From a virus (lineage: Duplodnaviria; Heunggongvirae; Uroviricota; Caudoviricetes): DNA of 64,000 nucleotides. Position 1 is the first letter of the stretch. Each line of letters opens with the position of its first letter. The notes beneath the pieces were generated by a model that saw only the letters and a list, made by a program, of their open reading frames with translations, was not told the DNA's origin and did not search any database. This document shows positions 6,267 through 59,472 of the stretch, one piece after another. A program made the position numbers and the translations under genes. The DNA is taken from IMG/VR virus record IMGVR_UViG_2872147552_000001; one strand, given 5' to 3'.

Positions 6267-7523
6267 CTATCGAGAACCACCAAGAATAACACGGTTTTTG
6301 ACTGGATACCTACGATGTACTGGATAGCCCAATGCGTCTGCACTATGCTCAATGCCACCTGTCTTATCCATATCTCGTGTTCCAGGCTTGTAGATGACTT
6401 TTTCCAGTGAATCAATCAAATGCTTGCACTTCGGATCGATATACAGCCGGATATCTCCAGATGCGGTCATCAGCATTCGGTTAACAGCATTAACACGATC
6501 CGCAATTGGCGGGTGCTTTTTCGAATAATCGACACGTAAGAATCCCTTCTCTTTGAATATGTCGACGTCAGACTCCCCGCGAGCATGTTGGCGATAAGCA
6601 CCTGCCGGATCTGGAAATACCGTTATCTGTGATTTCCAGCGCCAGAAGCGTCTCTCAAGCTCATCACAAACCTCTGCCGTGTTAGAGGAAAAGAGCACCA
6701 ATTCATCAATTGCCCATAGCTCACCATTTGGCTGAGGTTGCAAAATTACTGAAGACATCGGGTCAATGTTGAAGTCCTGCCCTACCCATATAGGCAACCG
6801 AGGGTTGAACTGAAGCGGTTTTACATGCACGTTACGATCGAACGGGTAGTAAACGCGCCCGGACATGTTCTCAAAGCTCGCCAGGTACTCCTGAGCGAAC
6901 GATTTCGGGTCCATATCGTTCTTAGCAGCTTCAATTTCCGCCGTAGGTACAAACGGAGAATCGGCAGTTACAAACTGCCAGCTCTTCCACTGTCCCTTTC
7001 TTTGCAGCTCTACGTTCTGGCCTATAGTCCACAGTTTGTGAAATTCCGAGAAGCCTTTTGGCGTACCAATGATCAGTGCACCGCCGCGTGTCGATGAAAG
7101 AGTAGGTCGTAACACCTTGTACCAGGTGTCAGCCTTCATATCCTGAAATTCATCAAGCACTACAAAATGCAACGCTACGCCGCGCAGAGTGTCAGGCTTA
7201 TCAGCACCTTTGAGGGCGATCTCCGAACCGTTCTTCAACACGATTGTCATCGTGGTGTCGTTCTTTTTCCTAACCCACTTACGAGGCAGAACTTCCTGTA
7301 GATCGTCCCACAAAATCTGGCGAGCCATCTGGTAAGTAGGAGCGACATACCAGACCCTTTGCTTTTTTTCCTTTGCCGCCGCACGAATAATAGTGGAGAT
7401 CGACAACCGGGATTTTCCCCAGCGTCGACCAGCACAAACAACTTTAAATCGATGCGGAGACTGGAAGACTTTCATCTGTCCAGAATGCAGTTGCACAAGA
7501 CTGAGCGAGGACGGGATTGCCAT
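6267..7523 (-). CDS. terminase large subunit
   Basis: Walker A-like CAGRRWGKS near the N-terminus followed by nuclease-type C-terminal half; ATG overlaps TerS stop (TAATG coupling). Confidence 0.8.
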   Translation of the reverse strand: MAIPSSLSLVQLHSGQMKVFQSPHRFKVVCAGRRWGKSRLSISTIIRAAAKEKKQRVWYVAPTYQMARQILWDDLQEVLPRKWVRKKNDTTMTIVLKNGSEIALKGADKPDTLRGVALHFVVLDEFQDMKADTWYKVLRPTLSSTRGGALIIGTPKGFSEFHKLWTIGQNVELQRKGQWKSWQFVTADSPFVPTAEIEAAKNDMDPKSFAQEYLASFENMSGRVYYPFDRNVHVKPLQFNPRLPIWVGQDFNIDPMSSVILQPQPNGELWAIDELVLFSSNTAEVCDELERRFWRWKSQITVFPDPAGAYRQHARGESDVDIFKEKGFLRVDYSKKHPPIADRVNAVNRMLMTASGDIRLYIDPKCKHLIDSLEKVIYKPGTRDMDKTGGIEHSADALGYPVHRRYPVKNRVILGGSR

Positions 7524-8155
7524 TATTCGTCCTCCCCTTTACTTCCATCATCTGTCGCATCAAATTCGCTTAGAGCTTCTTCTTCTAACGTCTCAAGCAA
7601 TTCGTCATCGATGATTTCAGGCTCGTCGTCTTCCTGACGTAATTTCGCCACCTGGGAAGGCGTAAGCTCACCAAATACCAGGTTCGGAATTTCTTCCTCG
7701 TCATTTTCCGCATGATCCATGCCCAATGCTTTGGACGAAACTTCAAAGCATTTTGCAAGGGTATTACTGGCTCTCTGTAAGCTCTTGAGAGAATCCTCAA
7801 TCGCCCCTAAAGGCTTACCCTCACGTTTGGCCGTAGTGACTTCGACCATCACCATCTGCCCCAACGCATACGCCCAGCCGTCATAACGTGTACGACGTTC
7901 TTCTATCTTTTCCGCACGGGCTTTAGCGCGAAGCTCTGCGTCAGATTTAAGAGACTCACGAACCATCTTCCCAACAGAGTCCGCGCCTTTCTCTAATCCT
8001 CGCTTTTTGAAATGTCTGGAGAGTGTTTCACGACGAATGCCGTACTCTTCCTCCAGCTTTGAGAGTGTATATTCGCCTGACGTCCATTTGGCTTCAGCTT
8101 CGGCCCACTCCGCTGGTGTCAGGCGAGTTTTTACCTCGTCTTTTTCGACCGTCAT
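7523..8155 (-). CDS. terminase small subunit (HTH DNA-binding)
   Basis: 210-aa protein with N-terminal HTH-like segment and acidic C-terminal tail, translationally coupled to TerL; GAGGGA RBS. Confidence 0.6.
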   Translation of the reverse strand: MTVEKDEVKTRLTPAEWAEAEAKWTSGEYTLSKLEEEYGIRRETLSRHFKKRGLEKGADSVGKMVRESLKSDAELRAKARAEKIEERRTRYDGWAYALGQMVMVEVTTAKREGKPLGAIEDSLKSLQRASNTLAKCFEVSSKALGMDHAENDEEEIPNLVFGELTPSQVAKLRQEDDEPEIIDDELLETLEEEALSEFDATDDGSKGEDE

Positions 8156-8249
8156 AGATCCCTCTAAAACACACAGAGCGCGTCCATGCGCTCTAAAACA
8201 ACTTGTTTACTGAATCTGCTAACCAACTTGTTTTCTGGGGTGTTTAATT

Positions 8250-8349
8250 AGGTCTGGGCATGTCTTATTAAGCCTGCTTCCGTATATATTTAATAAGTTA
8301 CTTATTATTTATATATACAGAAGCAGGTCTTTAAATAAGCTCCCAGACC
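8250..8349. repeat. nested inverted-repeat element, copy 1 (outer arms AGGTCTGGG/CCCAGACC, inner arms GCCTGCTTCCGTATATA/TATATACAGAAGCAGG)
   Basis: Long AT-rich palindrome seen directly in sequence upstream of the terminase operon; near-identical copy at 38751-38850. Confidence 0.6.
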
Positions 8350-8351
8350 GG

Positions 8352-8618
8352 TTACATCACCAGTAACTTCGCTTTGGCTCGACCTAAAGTGGTTAACCCA
8401 AGAGTTCGGCGGTGATAGCGATTGTCACTGCGTTGGCGCGTATGCCCTTTCTCCACCAGCCCCTTTTTTATCAGAGCGCGAATTGAGAACTGGATACTTT
8501 GCTTGGTTGTCTTGTACGGCAAAACTTCAAGCAATTCGTCCAGATCAAGTAAATGACCTCGCTCATAACCGAGGTTGAGCGTTTTGATGATGTCCTTTTG
8601 TTTATCGGTTAACGTCAT
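8352..8618 (-). CDS. small DNA-binding protein (winged-helix-like), hypothetical
   Basis: 88-aa basic ORF, AAGGA RBS; first gene upstream of the terminase. Confidence 0.35.
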   Translation of the reverse strand: MTLTDKQKDIIKTLNLGYERGHLLDLDELLEVLPYKTTKQSIQFSIRALIKKGLVEKGHTRQRSDNRYHRRTLGLTTLGRAKAKLLVM

Positions 8619-8627
8619 GGCAAATCC

Positions 8628-9527
8628 TTATGCCGGTAAAGCAATTTCTAACGGTTTATCCAAAGGTTGTTTGTCGAATGCCAGCAGTGGCAGCGTGTCA
8701 GGCAGCCGACGACCAAAGTCAGGGTTTCGGTACACACCATACAACGGAGACGTAAAGCTCAGGTTGTGAATGTCCTTGAGCAGCTTCACAATGCTGGCCT
8801 CGTCCACCAGACTGTCGGCAATGTCCTGAATCGTCGTGCCACGATTCCGCCCAGCTTTTGCCAGGGAACTGTTCTTGTGGTAGTCCGCTACCAGATCACG
8901 CAGTGCACGGCGACGACGAGACTCGCTCATTGCGAACAACTCTTTGACGATCGCCTCGTTATCACCCGGGTCGGAACGGAAATGGCGCTGGAATACACGC
9001 AGTGCACTTTCATAGCTCTTCGGTCGCTCAGGGCGGATGAACTTAAACCCTGCTTTCATGGCGAAGGGATTGTATTTGCTCATCGAGGACTGGATCTCAA
9101 TGATTGGCCGGTCGTGCATCCTGCTAACCAGGTTAATCATTCGATAGGAGACGCCGACACCGCGGTACTGAGTGTCCACAACGGAACGGCTGATCACCGC
9201 AAAGTTGTTGTTCACGTACCGCCCCCAATACTGGTTGGCCACGGTGGTATTGGTGGTTGGCTTCAGCTTAGGAAACATGCGATGGCGAGGCGCCAGCAGC
9301 AGTTTCGGGTAAGCCATAACCACGACGCCCACCAGCCGGTCGTCCAGTTCGCAGCGATAATACGTTGGCGCAAACGGCTTACCATCCGTCTTGTAGTGCA
9401 GCGACTTCAGCGCGTGCCAGTCTTCAACCGTGCCTTTGGTAACGGTCATACGCTCCAGAAAGTCCAGATGACGCGGGAACTCTTCCGGGCGGTAGCGTTT
9501 GATGATGATGCCTGTCATGTCGATCAC
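8628..9527 (-). CDS. GNAT-like acetyltransferase-domain protein (tentative)
   Basis: Segment VISRSVVDTQYRGVGVSYRMINLV resembles the GNAT acetyl-CoA-binding motif (Q/R-x-x-G-x-G/A); track start is GTG overlapping upstream stop, alternative ATG about 10 nt downstream with AGGTGA RBS. Confidence 0.35.
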   Translation of the reverse strand: MIDMTGIIIKRYRPEEFPRHLDFLERMTVTKGTVEDWHALKSLHYKTDGKPFAPTYYRCELDDRLVGVVVMAYPKLLLAPRHRMFPKLKPTTNTTVANQYWGRYVNNNFAVISRSVVDTQYRGVGVSYRMINLVSRMHDRPIIEIQSSMSKYNPFAMKAGFKFIRPERPKSYESALRVFQRHFRSDPGDNEAIVKELFAMSESRRRRALRDLVADYHKNSSLAKAGRNRGTTIQDIADSLVDEASIVKLLKDIHNLSFTSPLYGVYRNPDFGRRLPDTLPLLAFDKQPLDKPLEIALPA

Positions 9528-9778
9528 CTACGCTCGATATTGGCATTGATGAAGTCCAGGCGAAGCGATTCCATCGCCCCAACCATGACGTATGGACGCC
9601 CACCGTTATGCCAGCAATCCAGCACACTGCCGTCGTTGTTGATCATCAGCAGTGCCAGGCTCTGGCTTTTGCCTTCTCTGGCGTACTGGAGTGCTTCTTC
9701 CAGCAGGCGGATGACTTCAACGTTGTTGTTGTCAGCCTCTTTCGATGGCTTCAGCTCTACGATCTTCAAATCAGGCAT
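9524..9778 (-). CDS. hypothetical protein
   Basis: 84-aa ORF tightly packed between the ABC ATPase and the GNAT-like gene. Confidence 0.35.
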   Translation of the reverse strand: MPDLKIVELKPSKEADNNNVEVIRLLEEALQYAREGKSQSLALLMINNDGSVLDCWHNGGRPYVMVGAMESLRLDFINANIERR

Positions 9779-10409
9779 ATTCCACCTTCACGCGTTCTTT
9801 GTAGTGCTTGGTGATCTGCATATCCGGGCGCAGCGCGTTCTTCAGGTCTTCGTGAGTCGTCGCCACCATTACCGTCGCACCAACCTTTCGAGCGGCACGC
9901 TGGAGGTTAGATGCCACAACCTGAGCGGTTACACGGTCTAGAACAGCCCCGAACTCGTCAGCAGCCCACACTTTAGCGCCTGACTCAATCAGTTTGGCAA
10001 TCTTGAGACGATATTTCTGGCCGTCTGACATTTCAGAAGGCTTGCGAACAAACAGATATGCATCGTTCAGACCAGCCATAGATAACAACCCAAGCGCATC
10101 ACTGGTCGTTTTGCCCAACTGATCGATGACGTTAACCTCATTATCGAAGGTAAAATCATCGATGGAGGCTACAGACAGCCCTTCATCCTTCATCTGTCGT
10201 TGCAACTCGCGCAGCACAACGGATTTGCCGGATCCGGATTGGCCGGTGATGTACACCACATCGCCCTGCTTCACTTCCAGCTCCAGATTGTCGTAAAGCG
10301 TCCACTCTTTTTCGTCCAGACCAAGCCCGAACGACTCAGCGATTTCCAACGTGCGCGTGGTTTTATTTACGCGTGTCTGAAACGATACGTTGATGATGTA
10401 TTTGCTCAT
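9771..10409 (-). CDS. stand-alone ABC-type ATPase (nucleotide-binding domain only)
   Basis: Walker A GQSGSGKS, ABC signature LSDGQKYRL, Walker B VWAADEFGAVLD and H-loop ATTHEDL all present in a 212-aa protein with no transmembrane partner. Confidence 0.6.
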   Translation of the reverse strand: MSKYIINVSFQTRVNKTTRTLEIAESFGLGLDEKEWTLYDNLELEVKQGDVVYITGQSGSGKSVVLRELQRQMKDEGLSVASIDDFTFDNEVNVIDQLGKTTSDALGLLSMAGLNDAYLFVRKPSEMSDGQKYRLKIAKLIESGAKVWAADEFGAVLDRVTAQVVASNLQRAARKVGATVMVATTHEDLKNALRPDMQITKHYKERVKVEYA

Positions 10410-11074
10410 GCAGCCATCTCCCCGGAAGAGATCTTCTCCGCATATGCCACAAATGCGTCTACCCCGCTTTCTCCTGTCATTTCTTCCATGTGGGCAAGCA
10501 AATCACCAACAACAATGGCAGAGCCAGCAGGGAGCGTTTTAAAGCCCAATACGTCGACAACACGTACTTCTTCCGCTGCAACTTCACGACTGATCTCGGT
10601 GTGTTCATCCTTCTGTCGTTTAGTTTCTTCGCCAAGATCGATAACTAGCGAGTCGGTGTCCATTTCTTCTGTCATACTGCCAACGAGAACATTCAACTCA
10701 CGCTCTTCAAAGCCGAAAACCTCGATATCGTCCAGAACAAGCGACTCAAGCTCTTTCTGTAGCTTAATTGCATCGTAATCAATGCTGGCTAGTCGGTTAT
10801 CTTCAAGGCGCTTCGCACGAACCTCGTCATCACTCAGATCATCGCGAACAATAACCGGCACGCGCTCAAGTCCAGCAAAAATTGCAGCCTCACGGCGGCC
10901 GTGGCCAGTAATAATTACGTCGTTCTTATCGACCGTAATTGGCTGGTCAAATCCTCGCTTTTTAATGGCTGCGGCCAGATCTCGGATCTGCTGTTCATCA
11001 TGCTTTTTGGCATTCATCTCATAGGGAATAAGATCTGCCGGGTCGCGATATACGATTTCAAACTTTTTGGTCAT
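10406..11074 (-). CDS. ParB-like nuclease-domain protein 1
   Basis: ParB/Srx N-terminal domain motif (ITGHGRREAA); start moved to ATG at 11074 with AAGGAG RBS, overlapping stop of the next gene. Confidence 0.6.
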   Translation of the reverse strand: MTKKFEIVYRDPADLIPYEMNAKKHDEQQIRDLAAAIKKRGFDQPITVDKNDVIITGHGRREAAIFAGLERVPVIVRDDLSDDEVRAKRLEDNRLASIDYDAIKLQKELESLVLDDIEVFGFEERELNVLVGSMTEEMDTDSLVIDLGEETKRQKDEHTEISREVAAEEVRVVDVLGFKTLPAGSAIVVGDLLAHMEEMTGESGVDAFVAYAEKISSGEMAA

Positions 11075-11754
11075 TACATACGCTCCTTGTAGTAGTCGAC
11101 CAGCCACACCAGAGCCTCACCAGCGTTCTCCATTTCATTACCGGTGTTAATAGCCTGCTCTTTGATGATGTTTTTTATGGTTTCTGCAACACGATCTGAC
11201 GCATCGAAAGTTACTTTGAAGCGCATGGTCTGATGTTCCGCCCCCACACGTTCGGTTTTCTCTCGTTTGTCGGTATCGACAGGCTCATCACTACCACGAG
11301 ACAACGCCTCCAGTGCTTCAAGGTCGATTGCCGCCTCTTTTGCTAAAACCATCGAGATTTCGTCGTCATACGGGGCGATTTCAGACAGTTGATAGTCAAG
11401 TTCTGACTGAATTTCTTCAATGAAGCGTTGCAATGCGATTTGGTCGTCTTCACCGTATCGCTCGTTGTCCACCAGTGACATCTGTTTAGCTACGACATCG
11501 CTAATTTTGCCCACAGAAAGCACCGGAACCGTTGAAATTCCTTGCTCAATAGCAGCACGCCAGCGATGTTCGCCGCCGAGGATTTCAAAAAATCCATCTT
11601 CAAGTTCACGAGCCAAAATTGGCTTAAAAAAGCCCAATTTTTCGATAGAACCTTTCAGTTTTTCAAAATTCTGCGCACCAACCGAATTGGTGTTCCAGGT
11701 ATTCGGGCGAAGGTTGGCAACATCAACCTGCAAAATCGTGATTTTTACATCCAT
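11074..11754 (-). CDS. ParB-like nuclease-domain protein 2
   Basis: ParB/Srx motif ILGGEHRWRAA; track start 11772 is GTG, ATG at 11754 used. Confidence 0.55.
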   Translation of the reverse strand: MDVKITILQVDVANLRPNTWNTNSVGAQNFEKLKGSIEKLGFFKPILARELEDGFFEILGGEHRWRAAIEQGISTVPVLSVGKISDVVAKQMSLVDNERYGEDDQIALQRFIEEIQSELDYQLSEIAPYDDEISMVLAKEAAIDLEALEALSRGSDEPVDTDKREKTERVGAEHQTMRFKVTFDASDRVAETIKNIIKEQAINTGNEMENAGEALVWLVDYYKERM

Positions 11755-11836
11755 TTTATTGCTACAATCCACTAAGTAATCACTTACTTATTATAATAGC
11801 CAAATAACATACAAAAGGCACTAAGGAAAGAGGTTT

Positions 11837-13396
11837 ATGACTGTTCGGATTGTATCTAACGCAGTAAATGCGCTTATTTCTGGCGCAGATGACAAGGTAA
11901 AGCAACTGGTGCAGCAAATGTTGAGCTACGAAGTCGAGACTGGCGACTGGAAGGGCACAAGCACGATGTTCAACTGGAGTAAAAACTCGTTCCCTGCTGG
12001 CTTTGCCAAGCCTGTAGCGGCGAACTTGAACAAGGCGGGCATCAAATGTGTTCATATCCGCAAAGACAAAGCCCCGGCGCTTGGTAAACCAAATCCTGCG
12101 GTTAACCCATTCCCATACAATCCTGATTATGCGTATCAGGATCAGACTGTGGAAACACTGGTTCGAGAGGGAATGATGATTGCGCAGATCGCTACTGGTG
12201 GCGGGAAATCTAACGTTGCCTGCAAAGCAGCTGCACGTATCGGTCGAATGACATTATTTTTAACAACCCGCTCTGTTCTGATGTTTCAAATGGCCGAAAA
12301 CTTCCAGAGATCCATCGACTACCGCGCCGAAAATGGTGAACCGTGGTTAAAAGACCAAAAGGTTGGAGTCATTGGCTCGGGTGAGTTCCAGGTATCACGA
12401 CATATCAACGTCGCTACAGTTCAAACTCTTGCAAGTTTCCTCGAAGAACCACCACGCGATGCAACACCAGATAAGAAAAGCTACCACCTCAAACGTCGGG
12501 AGTTGGTGAAACGCTTCCTTTCAAGTGTCTCTCTTCTTATTCTGGAAGAGGCGCATGAGTCTTCAGGCTCAAATTTCTATGACATCGCCAGATTATGTGT
12601 GAACGCAGACTATCGTCTGGCGCTTACAGCCACGCCGTTCATGAAGGATTCGACGGAAGCCAACATGCGCCTGATGGCGGTGGCCGGGCGAATTGAAATT
12701 AAAGTCACAGAAAAGTACCTGATTGATCGAGGCATTCTGGCAAAGCCGTACTTCCTTTATCATAAAGTTGCCTACAAGCCAGACGAGGCCAGAATCAAGG
12801 CCGAACTTGCCAACAAACACCTCAATTTTAGAGTTGGTATGAGCACCGCCTACCAAAAGGCTTATCAGTTGGGGATCGTGTATAATTTGGGACGTAACGA
12901 GGCCATAGTGCGCGAGGCATTGCTTTATAAGCAACATTCACTCAACTGCATGACTCTGGTTCGTCTTAAACGCCACGGGCAAATCCTGATGGAGATGATG
13001 AAGGAGTCAGGTCTTAAAGTTGATTTCATCTATGGGGAATCTAACCAGACGACAAGGCAAGCAAAGCTGAATAGTTTAGCGTCTGGTGAAATAGATGTTT
13101 TAATAGGCTCGACTATTCTGGATGTTGGTGTTGATGTGCCAAGCGTTGGTGCGGTCATTCTTGCTGGTGGTGGGAAAGCAGAAGTTGAAATGAGACAGCG
13201 TGTCGGTCGTGGCTTACGAGCCAAAAAAAATCAGGCAAACGTGTGTTTTATCACTGATTTCATTGACATTAGCAACAAATACCTGTTGTCTCACTCTTAT
13301 GAGCGAAAACACATCATCGACACCACACCTGGCTTTGCAGAAGGTGTATTGCCTATTGATGGAGCATTCGATTTTGGAGTTCTGAAACGAGATTAG
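11837..13396 (+). CDS. SF2 helicase (ResIII/DEAH-like)
   Basis: Motif I ATGGGKS, motif II LEEAHE, motif III TATP, motif VI QRVGRGLRA; AAGGAAAGAGG RBS. Confidence 0.75.
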   Translation: MTVRIVSNAVNALISGADDKVKQLVQQMLSYEVETGDWKGTSTMFNWSKNSFPAGFAKPVAANLNKAGIKCVHIRKDKAPALGKPNPAVNPFPYNPDYAYQDQTVETLVREGMMIAQIATGGGKSNVACKAAARIGRMTLFLTTRSVLMFQMAENFQRSIDYRAENGEPWLKDQKVGVIGSGEFQVSRHINVATVQTLASFLEEPPRDATPDKKSYHLKRRELVKRFLSSVSLLILEEAHESSGSNFYDIARLCVNADYRLALTATPFMKDSTEANMRLMAVAGRIEIKVTEKYLIDRGILAKPYFLYHKVAYKPDEARIKAELANKHLNFRVGMSTAYQKAYQLGIVYNLGRNEAIVREALLYKQHSLNCMTLVRLKRHGQILMEMMKESGLKVDFIYGESNQTTRQAKLNSLASGEIDVLIGSTILDVGVDVPSVGAVILAGGGKAEVEMRQRVGRGLRAKKNQANVCFITDFIDISNKYLLSHSYERKHIIDTTPGFAEGVLPIDGAFDFGVLKRD

Positions 13397-13398
13397 TT

Positions 13399-13677
13399 AT
13401 GAGTGAAAAGAAAACAACTTACTGTCAGGTAGCATTGTCTGATAAGGCCAATGACAAACTTGGAAAGTTTCAAGTGAAACTAAAAGAAAAAAATATCAAA
13501 ATGTCTAAGGCTGAAGTCATAAATACCATTCTGGAACAATTGACAATGGCCGACTTTGACAAGGTTATATCTTCTGTCGGGGCTTCCGCTAAGACTCGTG
13601 AGAAAATCATGCGTATCTATGAGAACTCTAATATGACAAAGGAAGATCTCGAAACGCTATTAAGCAGATTAAAATAA
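13399..13677 (+). CDS. small DNA-binding protein, possibly ribbon-helix-helix
   Basis: 92-aa ORF whose N-terminus (KTTYCQVALSDKANDKLGKF) has a beta-strand-then-helix pattern like RHH proteins; coupled to helicase stop. Confidence 0.35.
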   Translation: MSEKKTTYCQVALSDKANDKLGKFQVKLKEKNIKMSKAEVINTILEQLTMADFDKVISSVGASAKTREKIMRIYENSNMTKEDLETLLSRLK

Positions 13678-59410: not shown

Positions 59411-59472
59411 GTGTTTTCCTATGTGGTTGTTATGCGAAAATAATAAGTAAGTGCTTATATATTTTCAAGAGA

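Follow-up and report, generated by a model that had tools for sequence, protein, structure and literature searches.

The window, as we call the full 64,000-nucleotide stretch analysed here (IMG/VR record IMGVR_UViG_2872147552_000001, a virus of the class Caudoviricetes), is an SSU5-type phage-plasmid. This work concerns an operon of six minus-strand genes lying ahead of its terminase genes and encoding two ParB-like proteins, an ABC-type ATPase, a small accessory protein, a GNAT-fold acyltransferase and a small winged helix-turn-helix (wHTH) protein. Motif and coordinate readings were taken from the window's sequence, and the features of the locus are as follows, in the direction of transcription of the operon.

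11773-11836, no strand assigned: divergent intergenic region between ParB-A and the helicase gene; contains TATAATAAGTAAGTGATTACTTA; presumed promoter/operator of the operon.
11074-11772, minus strand: ParB-A, ParB/Srx N-terminal domain protein, 232 amino acids (aa); first gene of the operon.
10406-11074, minus strand: ParB-B, second ParB/Srx-domain protein, 222 aa from the ATG at 11074.
9771-10409, minus strand: ABC-type ATPase, a minimal nucleotide-binding domain of 212 aa; N-terminal half of the split ABC-GNAT enzyme.
9524-9778, minus strand: accessory gene, phrog_796, 84 aa; occupies a variable slot between the enzyme halves.
8628-9527, minus strand: GNAT-fold acyltransferase, 299 aa from a GTG or 296 aa from the ATG at 9518; C-terminal half of the enzyme.
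8352-8618, minus strand: small basic winged-helix protein, MarR/Lrs14-like, 88 aa; last gene of the operon.
8251-8349, no strand assigned: AT-centred imperfect palindrome of 99 bp between the wHTH stop codon and TerS.
7523-8155, minus strand: putative small terminase (TerS), 210 aa with an acidic C-terminus; phrog_867, E 5e-100.
6267-7523, minus strand: large terminase (TerL), Terminase_6N/6C, phrog_2, 418 aa.

A preliminary description of this DNA, made from its letters, had reported six coupled minus-strand genes ahead of the small terminase, and all six open reading frames (ORFs) are indeed present across 8352-11772. Neighbouring genes share 1-8 nt or leave a gap of no more than 9 nt, and they are translationally coupled. 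The only start that calls for comment is that of ParB-B, whose ORF spans 10406-11107, with a GTG at its 11107 end; the start annotated in SSU5, an ATG at 11074, is likely the true one. All six proteins match PHROG families, with E-values from 1e-45 to 1e-165, so that we are dealing with a conserved gene set and not with chance ORFs.

Upstream of the operon and divergent from it lies a gene for a DEAD/UvsW-type helicase (11837-13396, plus strand), a neighbour kept in all relatives. Downstream, a 196-bp gap separates the operon from putative TerS, TerL and the portal gene. The assignment of TerL is solid by both Pfam and PHROG. The label of small terminase, taken over from the preliminary description, is one of position: the gene lies upstream of TerL, overlaps it and is kept in all related loci, and its product matches phrog_867, named "DNA binding domain", and no Pfam family.

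Over this 3.4-kb stretch, identity is 97% with Escherichia phages CMS-2020a and Cyrano, 87% with Salmonella phage SSU5 and about 82% with Klebsiella phage-plasmids. The block from TerL to ParB-A occurs in 791 PLSDB plasmids, among them 307 from Klebsiella, 237 from Escherichia, 91 from Enterobacter, 62 from Yersinia and 49 from Salmonella. Thus, the sequences of this module are common and already catalogued in PHROGs and PLSDB, and the novelty lies in function, not in sequence. The names that databases attach to the proteins, such as "ABC transporter" (PHROGs) and "ParB/RepB/Spo0J family partition protein" (NCBI), are transferred labels, inconsistent and probably misleading. ParB-B is called "DNA methyltransferase" in the RefSeq records of phages nickie and RHEph10, though it has no methyltransferase domain, and the GNAT protein appears in database records as "ABC transporter ATP-binding subunit".

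An ABC-GNAT enzyme in two chains and its ParB-like partners

The ATPase had been described as a complete ABC domain standing alone. Complete it is: the motifs GQSGSGKS (residue 56), VIDQLG, MSDGQ (residue 127), VWAADE (residue 147) and THE (residue 185) follow one another in the proper order, and the protein matches ABC_tran (PF00005) above cut-off with an E-value of 5.3e-13, nucleotide-binding domains in the PDB with E-values down to 1e-13, and the families phrog_293 and phrog_11143. The signature, however, reads MSDGQ and not LSDGQ, as first given. That the ATPase has no membrane partner also stands, but it is not alone, being one half of an enzyme divided between two genes.

The other half is the GNAT protein, in which an acetyl-CoA motif had been correctly noticed. 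Its motif A reads YRGVGVSYR, with R122 and G125 invariant, and the R-x-x-G motif is invariant in the split and fused families (see below) alike. By sequence, a GNAT model matches the 299-aa protein only at a borderline E-value of 0.038, and a PDB sequence search returned no relative of the family. The AlphaFold 2 (AF2) model, built with 34 diverse homologues, is confident, with a predicted local distance difference test score (pLDDT) of 89.1 and a predicted TM-score (pTM) of 0.81. The protein thus combines the α/β fold with the acyl-CoA pyrophosphate-binding motif A (Q/R-x-x-G-x-G/A), the two features that mark the GNAT superfamily. Residues from about 170 to 299 make up an extra C-terminal domain, conserved and mostly helical. 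The net charge of the protein is +15, and that of the wHTH protein is +9.

A profile of the GNAT family, searched against 1.8 billion representative sequences, retrieved 979 proteins, many of which are 450-500 aa long and match at residues from about 200 to 480. In these relatives, Pfam ABC_tran matches at the N-terminus, and GNAT models match with E-values down to 1e-5. The consensus of this fused family agrees motif for motif with the window ATPase, whose own family corresponds to the N-terminal 200 aa of the fused relatives. In phmmer searches, the ABC protein (E down to 1e-60) and the GNAT protein (E down to 1e-20) of the window meet in the same single ORF in loci L012-L036; contigs with such a single ABC-GNAT ORF come from Bathyarchaeia, Nitrososphaeria and Planctomycetota. 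Since both window proteins match one ORF, in domain order, the window encodes a split form of one enzyme, the ABC ATPase (9771-10409) being one half of it and the GNAT-fold protein (8628-9527) the other. The name given to the family by JGI and by the Cyrano record is [quoted passage not shown].

A few relatives have unusual architectures. Among P0169, P0180 and P0189, one fused ABC-GNAT protein contains an intein, with a LAGLIDADG endonuclease, inside its ABC domain. The other two, of 791 and 1260 aa, are predicted to combine a family-B DNA polymerase with ABC-GNAT, either as real fusions or as run-on gene calls.

As for the ParB-like proteins, the two ParB/Srx N-terminal motifs reported earlier can both be read in the sequence, GGEHRWRAA in ParB-A and GHGRREAA in ParB-B. 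The matches to Pfam ParB_N (PF02195) have E-values of 3.3e-13 (49.9 bits) for ParB-A and 1.5e-8 (35 bits) for ParB-B, against a gathering score of 26.3. Both proteins have the GxxR box II and the downstream (D/E)N motif of the ParB/Srx fold, invariant across orthologues. ParB-A, which matches phrog_723 (E 2e-79) and Spo0J in the PDB (1vz0, E 2.6e-9), carries the motif DNERYGEDD followed by an acidic linker and a small conserved C-terminal domain, and its motifs are kept across seven orthologues. ParB-B carries PYEMNAKKH and matches phrog_930 (E 1e-112) and phrog_498, a family of ParB-methyltransferase proteins (E 5e-32); of the two paralogues, it is the closest to the ParB domains of ParB-methyltransferase and ParB-ABC-GNAT fusions. 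The net charges are -18 for ParB-A and -21 for ParB-B. The C-terminal domains of the ParB proteins have no match in a PDB sequence search, and the AF2 model of ParB-A, for which the homologues found were only variants at least 84-85% identical, has a pLDDT of 35 and is unusable.

Profile searches uncovered about 30 protein clusters that are natural fusions of ParB, zinc ribbon, ABC and GNAT, and several of these clusters have a JGI name listing ParB, ABC and acetyltransferase. Five longer relatives of 664-699 aa (P0225, P0246, P0218, P0191 and P0221) have an N-terminal extension and a CPxCxY zinc ribbon; aligned with hhalign, their extensions match the ParB-B family with a probability of 98% (E 2.8e-13) and the ParB-A family with 96.7%. 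Precomputed annotation places PF02195 together with PF00005 on P0402-4 and P0408. Planctomycete proviruses encode ParB_N separately, in a gene next to that for the fused ABC-GNAT protein. Given the fusions in about 30 clusters, the ParB-like domains are part of the same machine as the ABC-GNAT enzyme.

Linkage to the large terminase and the surroundings of the operon

The order helicase (divergent), ParB, ParB, ABC, variable slot, GNAT, wHTH, gap, TerS, TerL and portal is kept at 41-45% protein identity. Loci L003, L004 and L006 show it; its sources are an Ectothiorhodospira contig, a Piscirickettsiaceae metagenome-assembled genome and marine contigs and, among phages, Pseudomonas phage nickie, Rhizobium phage RHEph10 and phages of Stenotrophomonas and Xanthomonas. 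Farther away, 113 distant loci with the fused enzyme were taken from GTDB genomes and IMG/VR, including Bathyarchaeia and Planctomycetota. TerL lies within 2.5 kb of the fused enzyme and on the same strand in 70 of them, and within 200 bp in 53. In viruses of the Bathyarchaeia type, TerL is followed by ABC-GNAT, often 8 bp apart (L125, L020 and L012), the planctomycete order is ABC-GNAT, ParB, TerL and portal (L027), and in L172 a triple fusion is followed by an ORF of 181 aa, TerL and, later, the portal gene.

One explanation of the synteny would be vertical inheritance within one phage lineage. We reject it in view of the linkage itself, which extends across fusion and fission, changes of gene order and the domains of life. 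That the association with TerL survives fusion and fission, rearrangement and the divide between bacteria and archaea argues for a functional tie to packaging or for co-timing with it. Tailed viruses that are very distant from one another have the unit next to the gene for the large terminase, and the module is a single, ancient, terminase-linked enzyme system. The preliminary description had suggested a system of unrecognised type concerned with DNA modification, DNA protection or packaging. The packaging-proximal part of that suggestion agrees with the TerL synteny from enterobacterial phage-plasmids to planctomycete and archaeal viruses; the DNA-modification part keeps its conditional standing.

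Many of the IMG/VR contigs in the series L097-L170 end at, or within about 200 bp after, ABC-GNAT, with TerL just upstream, and in L020 and other longer loci, host-like genes follow ABC-GNAT. The TerL/ABC-GNAT pair seems to lie at the edge of archaeal proviruses or at a recurrent assembly break.

Between the wHTH gene and TerS, the 99-bp palindrome has its arms at 8251-8289 and 8311-8349; folded as RNA, it has a free energy of -50.6 kcal/mol (z -11.9 versus shuffled sequences). Palindromes occupy the same position in L011 (RHEph10, 7118-7198) and in a marine relative (L006, 9221-9301), without sequence similarity, and the GenBank records of SSU5 and Cyrano were opened inside the palindrome loop. 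The element is a candidate for a cos/pac element, for a recognition site of the terminase or of ParB/wHTH, or for a transcriptional barrier.

The 11-mer ATAATAAGTAA occurs exactly three times in the window, at 8298-8308 (minus), 11784-11794 (minus) and 59440-59450 (plus); with one mismatch allowed, there are 5 matches versus 0.88 expected. One copy is thus at the centre of the palindrome before TerS, and another is in the divergent region between ParB-A and the helicase gene, where it overlaps TATAAT and a TAAGTAA/TTACTTA inverted repeat. The 11-mer may be an operator or a late-promoter element. No strong sigma-70 consensus was seen at 11773-11836, and a scan for sigma-70 promoters and terminators did not rise above shuffled expectation. 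A terminator-like GC-rich stem with a T-rich tract at 8174-8195 (minus), about 20 nt upstream of the TerS start and conserved in SSU5, may act in late transcription as an attenuator or as a target of antitermination; sites of this kind are no more numerous in the region than in shuffled sequence.

The 84-aa gene between the enzyme halves is absent from Cyrano, PhiR41_1 and CMS-2020a SCU-175, and its product has no match in Pfam, NCBIfam or PADLOC. In distant relatives, the slot holds from 0 to 3 unrelated small genes. An empty slot in some phages and variable content in relatives make the gene an accessory and not part of the core. The slot is a hot spot for small accessory genes (L001, L003, L004, L006, L010 and L011), including Phage_gp49_66 and RyR-domain genes in L003 and, in RHEph10, a gene of the DUF2829 family, to which the anti-Thoeris protein Tad2 belongs.

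The last gene of the operon is kept in all proteobacterial-phage versions of the module, with orthologues in L003-L007 and L010; its positional counterpart in L011 is 18% identical and was missed by phmmer. Its product, described earlier as a wHTH protein, belongs to phrog_900 (E 2e-45), and the profile matches that bear on the fold are weak: MarR-family 2eb7 (E 0.042), over the recognition helix and the wing, and Sta1/Lrs14 (E 0.003-0.004).

Proposed function and rival explanations

What might such an enzyme do? In a Foldseek search of the PDB, the best matches of the GNAT model are TmcA (2zpa, E 6.7e-5, 302 columns) and NAT10 (376-382 columns), and Mom of phage Mu is a close fold neighbour. 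TmcA and NAT10 are ATP-dependent tRNA and rRNA cytidine acetyltransferases that make N4-acetylcytidine (ac4C). In 12 of 116 distant loci, the fused enzyme has a gene for an ASCH-domain protein, above the Pfam cut-off, no more than about 1.3 kb away. Proteins of the ASCH family hydrolyse N4-acylcytosine as amidohydrolases (YqfB, PMC6972931) and erase ac4C from tRNA (bioRxiv 10.64898/2026.02.27.708502). The ASCH genes, which recur next to the fused enzyme in L099, L113, L129, L144, L153, L156, L162, L172 and L174, are often convergent with it and overlap its 3′ end; in L174, an MT-A70 methyltransferase and a TrmB wHTH gene are also nearby. On the ParB side, phage ParB-like proteins consisting of an NTP-binding domain and a C-terminal domain, with no DNA-binding domain, are required cognate activators of a thymine dioxygenase on double-stranded DNA (PMC13229309). 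The ParB fold is widely fused to phage DNA methyltransferases and binds CTP, ATP or GTP, and one ParB-acetyltransferase fusion is GTP-specific (PMC12704722).

We propose, with a probability of roughly 0.4, that the unit is an acyltransferase, gated by ATP and assisted by ParB, which puts a mark on viral nucleic acid around the time of packaging. ATP binding would dimerise the ABC domains, and the dimer would gate or position two GNAT domains on a nucleic-acid substrate, to which the acyl group would pass from acyl-CoA. The acidic ParB-like proteins would serve as loaders or activators on double-stranded DNA, much as the ParB partners of the phage thymine dioxygenases do, and the wHTH protein, perhaps with the 99-bp palindrome too, would confer specificity of site or timing. 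The likeliest substrate would be replicated phage DNA just before or during packaging, and the likeliest chemistry N-acylation of an exocyclic base amine, with N4-acylcytosine as the leading candidate. Such a mark might shield the incoming genome against host nucleases.

It is tempting to go one step further and to propose that, at packaging, viral DNA receives from the unit an N-acyl mark not known before, the leading candidate being N4-acetyl- or N4-acyl-deoxycytidine, with the ASCH proteins as erasers or readers. Hydrolysis of ATP by the ABC dimer, together with ParB-assisted loading, would then give access to the base. This more specific version is speculative, and we regard it as doubtful.

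Several points weigh against the proposal of a nucleic-acid acyltransferase. The structural match to TmcA and NAT10 has a low TM-score, 0.31-0.34, and homology to E. coli TmcA is rejected at the sequence level (the hhalign probability is 0.4% with the split family and 12% with the fused family); with a low TM-score and no backing from sequence, the match is taken as analogy, not membership. Polyamine/agmatine and protein N-acetyltransferases are equally near neighbours of the GNAT model, and therefore the fold does not fix the substrate. ASCH neighbours are found in only about 10% of the distant loci, the window has no ASCH gene, and TmcA, NAT10 and the ASCH proteins all act on RNA, so that the substrate might be RNA. 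Both ParB-like proteins are strongly acidic and have no detectable DNA-binding domain. The literature searches turned up neither a measurement of modified SSU5-type virion DNA nor a paper on the module. Finally, DNA modification explains the close association with TerL no better than a role in packaging would, and perhaps less well.

A role in packaging is the alternative that survives best, although we judge it unlikely: the proteins would assist the terminase in recognising, opening or processing its packaging site, with the ParB-like proteins acting as NTP-dependent DNA clamps or nickases at the palindrome, the wHTH protein as a site binder, and ABC-GNAT as a regulator of TerS, TerL or the portal, for example through acetylation. 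The contiguity of the enzyme with TerL in archaeal viruses, its place upstream of TerS/TerL in proteobacterial and planctomycete viruses, and a large palindrome of conserved position between wHTH and TerS are all in its favour, as is the report that ParB-fold domains can act as nickases or NTPases (PMC5512222). On the other hand, the archaeal versions usually come without separate ParB and wHTH genes, and thus site recognition cannot be the conserved core function. The invariance of the acyl-CoA motif across the aligned families would also argue for real catalysis rather than a scaffold. To our knowledge, no tailed phage with a characterised terminase requires an ABC ATPase or a GNAT protein.

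A more doubtful idea is that the enzyme acetylates DNA-bound proteins, neutralising the lysines of nucleoid proteins (HU, H-NS, archaeal Alba or histones), or polyamines, and so clears or conditions the DNA for packaging. The top structural neighbours of the GNAT model, namely agmatine, polyamine, spermine, protein N-terminal and lysine acetyltransferases and Sulfolobus Pat, would suit it, and a requirement shared by all packaging motors would agree with the linkage to TerL in bacteria as well as archaea. But enzymes of this kind normally work with no ATPase and no ParB partner, base chemistry is suggested by the ASCH neighbours and by the similarity to TmcA, NAT10 and Mom, and the idea is purely conjectural.

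Less credible again is delivery of the ParB-like proteins, perhaps with the enzyme, inside the virion, to be injected with the DNA as early effectors of the Dar type against restriction or other defences. P1 DdrB is a ParB-domain protein packaged in the head, and DdrB-like domains are encoded among late genes, by the virion genes (PMC5512222). The position of the module at the end of the deposited genome, adjoining the head genes, would fit this, as would an operon slot that gathers small accessory genes such as the DUF2829 gene of RHEph10. However, PHROG and PADLOC searches showed no similarity to the DdrB or Dar families or to any PADLOC model, the PHROG matches being to other ParB families, and no virion proteomics came to light; furthermore, a two-part enzyme dependent on ATP and acyl-CoA would be an unlikely passenger in a capsid.

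We give little credence to an RNA substrate, that is, to a viral TmcA/NAT10 analogue acetylating cytidines of host or viral tRNA or rRNA and so tuning late translation. The best Foldseek matches are RNA ac4C writers and the ASCH neighbours belong with the tRNA ac4C erasers; against this, the fusion and neighbourhood with the ParB fold and the linkage to the terminase point to DNA. There is no tRNA and no Rfam RNA family anywhere in the window.

The last alternative, that these are proteins of partition and maintenance, following the NCBI names, plus an ABC transporter or auxiliary metabolic gene, following those of PHROGs, draws on database names alone and can practically be set aside. The preliminary description was right that this is no ParAB pair: neither the operon nor its conserved neighbourhood contains a ParA, the only ATPase of the operon being of the ABC type, and the ParB-like proteins lack the ParA-binding motif (regular expression [LFI]G[KR]G[LFI]) and a helix-turn-helix (HTH) domain and match the full-length ParB model TIGR00180 below its cut-off (43 bits versus 58.45), in the N-domain only. 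Canonical parS occurs in the window at chance level only. A near-palindromic 16-mer, AGTTTCAAGTGAAACT, at 13466-13481 in a small ORF downstream of the helicase gene, resembles parS with three mismatches; the number of such matches is at chance level, 70 of 100 shuffles doing as well. SSU5 has a separate ParA-like gene 30 kb away, and Nickievirus phages, predicted to be lytic, retain the module, as do archaeal proviruses. The transporter reading is ruled out by the missing membrane partner, as there is no permease in the operon or its conserved neighbourhood and no membrane-spanning hydrophobic segment in the six proteins or TerS (mean hydropathy >1.5 over 19 residues).

A known anti-phage defence system was likewise considered and rejected by a PADLOC 2.0 scan, which gave matches to generic P-loop models and to the ParB part of MTase_II models only, with no system-level match; NCBIfam gave only sub-threshold ParB and generic ABC matches. 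No characterised family, of partition or terminase-accessory proteins, and no defence system claims the proteins.

Hundreds of clinical phage-plasmids of Klebsiella, E. coli, Enterobacter and Salmonella contain the block, as do plasmids of Yersinia pestis, and archaeal and planctomycete viral contigs are rich in its core enzyme; yet literature searches, including ones aimed at the module, at Nickievirus and RHEph10 and at archaeal viruses, found no publication on it. New here are the split enzyme, the ParB fusions and the linkage to TerL across both domains of life. If DNA acylation were true, it would be a new chemistry in phage genome modification, a second, independent case of ParB-fold proteins serving DNA-modifying enzymes, and a DNA-side counterpart to the TmcA/NAT10-ASCH pair of writer and eraser. 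An N-acyl mark would define a new class of DNA modification, extending from the enterobacterial phage-plasmids (SSU5, pHCM2 and Yersinia pestis pMT1) to viruses of planctomycetes and Bathyarchaeia. A role at the terminase would instead give the first ATP- and acyl-CoA-dependent accessory of a packaging motor. The question is directly testable in E. coli with the existing phages SSU5, Cyrano and PhiR41_1.

Comparison with known systems

The nearest counterpart of the enzyme is the COG2401-type (MK0520-like) ABC-acetyltransferase, which is the same family, and the gene order in the window follows its domain order. We found no characterised member of this family. Its proteins are single chains, whereas the window version consists of two polypeptides encoded on either side of a variable gene slot.

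TmcA and NAT10 share with the fused family the succession of a P-loop ATPase, a GNAT domain and a helical C-terminal domain, and in an alignment, Walker A, Walker B and GNAT motif A are collinear. However, the ATPase of TmcA and NAT10 is a RecD-type helicase domain and that of the module is an ABC nucleotide-binding domain. The module also lacks the DUF1726 of these enzymes, and it is viral, terminase-adjacent and equipped with ParB partners.

Mom of phage Mu is a GNAT-fold DNA adenine modifier, but it is a stand-alone protein of about 230 aa without an ATPase or a ParB partner. It has no sequence match to the module, the Mom family is not among the Pfam or PHROG matches, and its genomic position and regulation differ.

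For the ParB-like proteins, the closest parallel is the 5mYOX176/ParB176 pair (PMC13229309), in which the gene for a small ParB-like phage protein, made up of an NTP-binding N-domain and a C-terminal domain, likewise lies beside that for an enzyme. That enzyme is an Fe(II)/2-oxoglutarate dioxygenase, cognate-specific and acting on polymer DNA, whereas the module's is a predicted ABC ATPase plus GNAT acyltransferase. In contrast to the pair, the module has two ParB paralogues, ParB-enzyme fusions and linkage to the terminase.

The fusions of ParB to DNA methyltransferases (phrog_498) also couple a ParB domain to a catalytic module, and they are often encoded just upstream of terminase genes. 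They depend on S-adenosylmethionine, unlike the partner in the module, a predicted acyl-CoA-dependent GNAT protein with an ABC ATPase.

With ParABS systems, finally, the module has in common the ParB/Srx NTP-binding fold with its GxxR and (D/E)N motifs. It differs in that it lacks ParA, a ParA-binding peptide, an HTH centromere-binding domain and parS, and in occurring also in phages that are predicted to be lytic and are not plasmids. The system is set apart from every described ParB-, GNAT- or ABC-based system.

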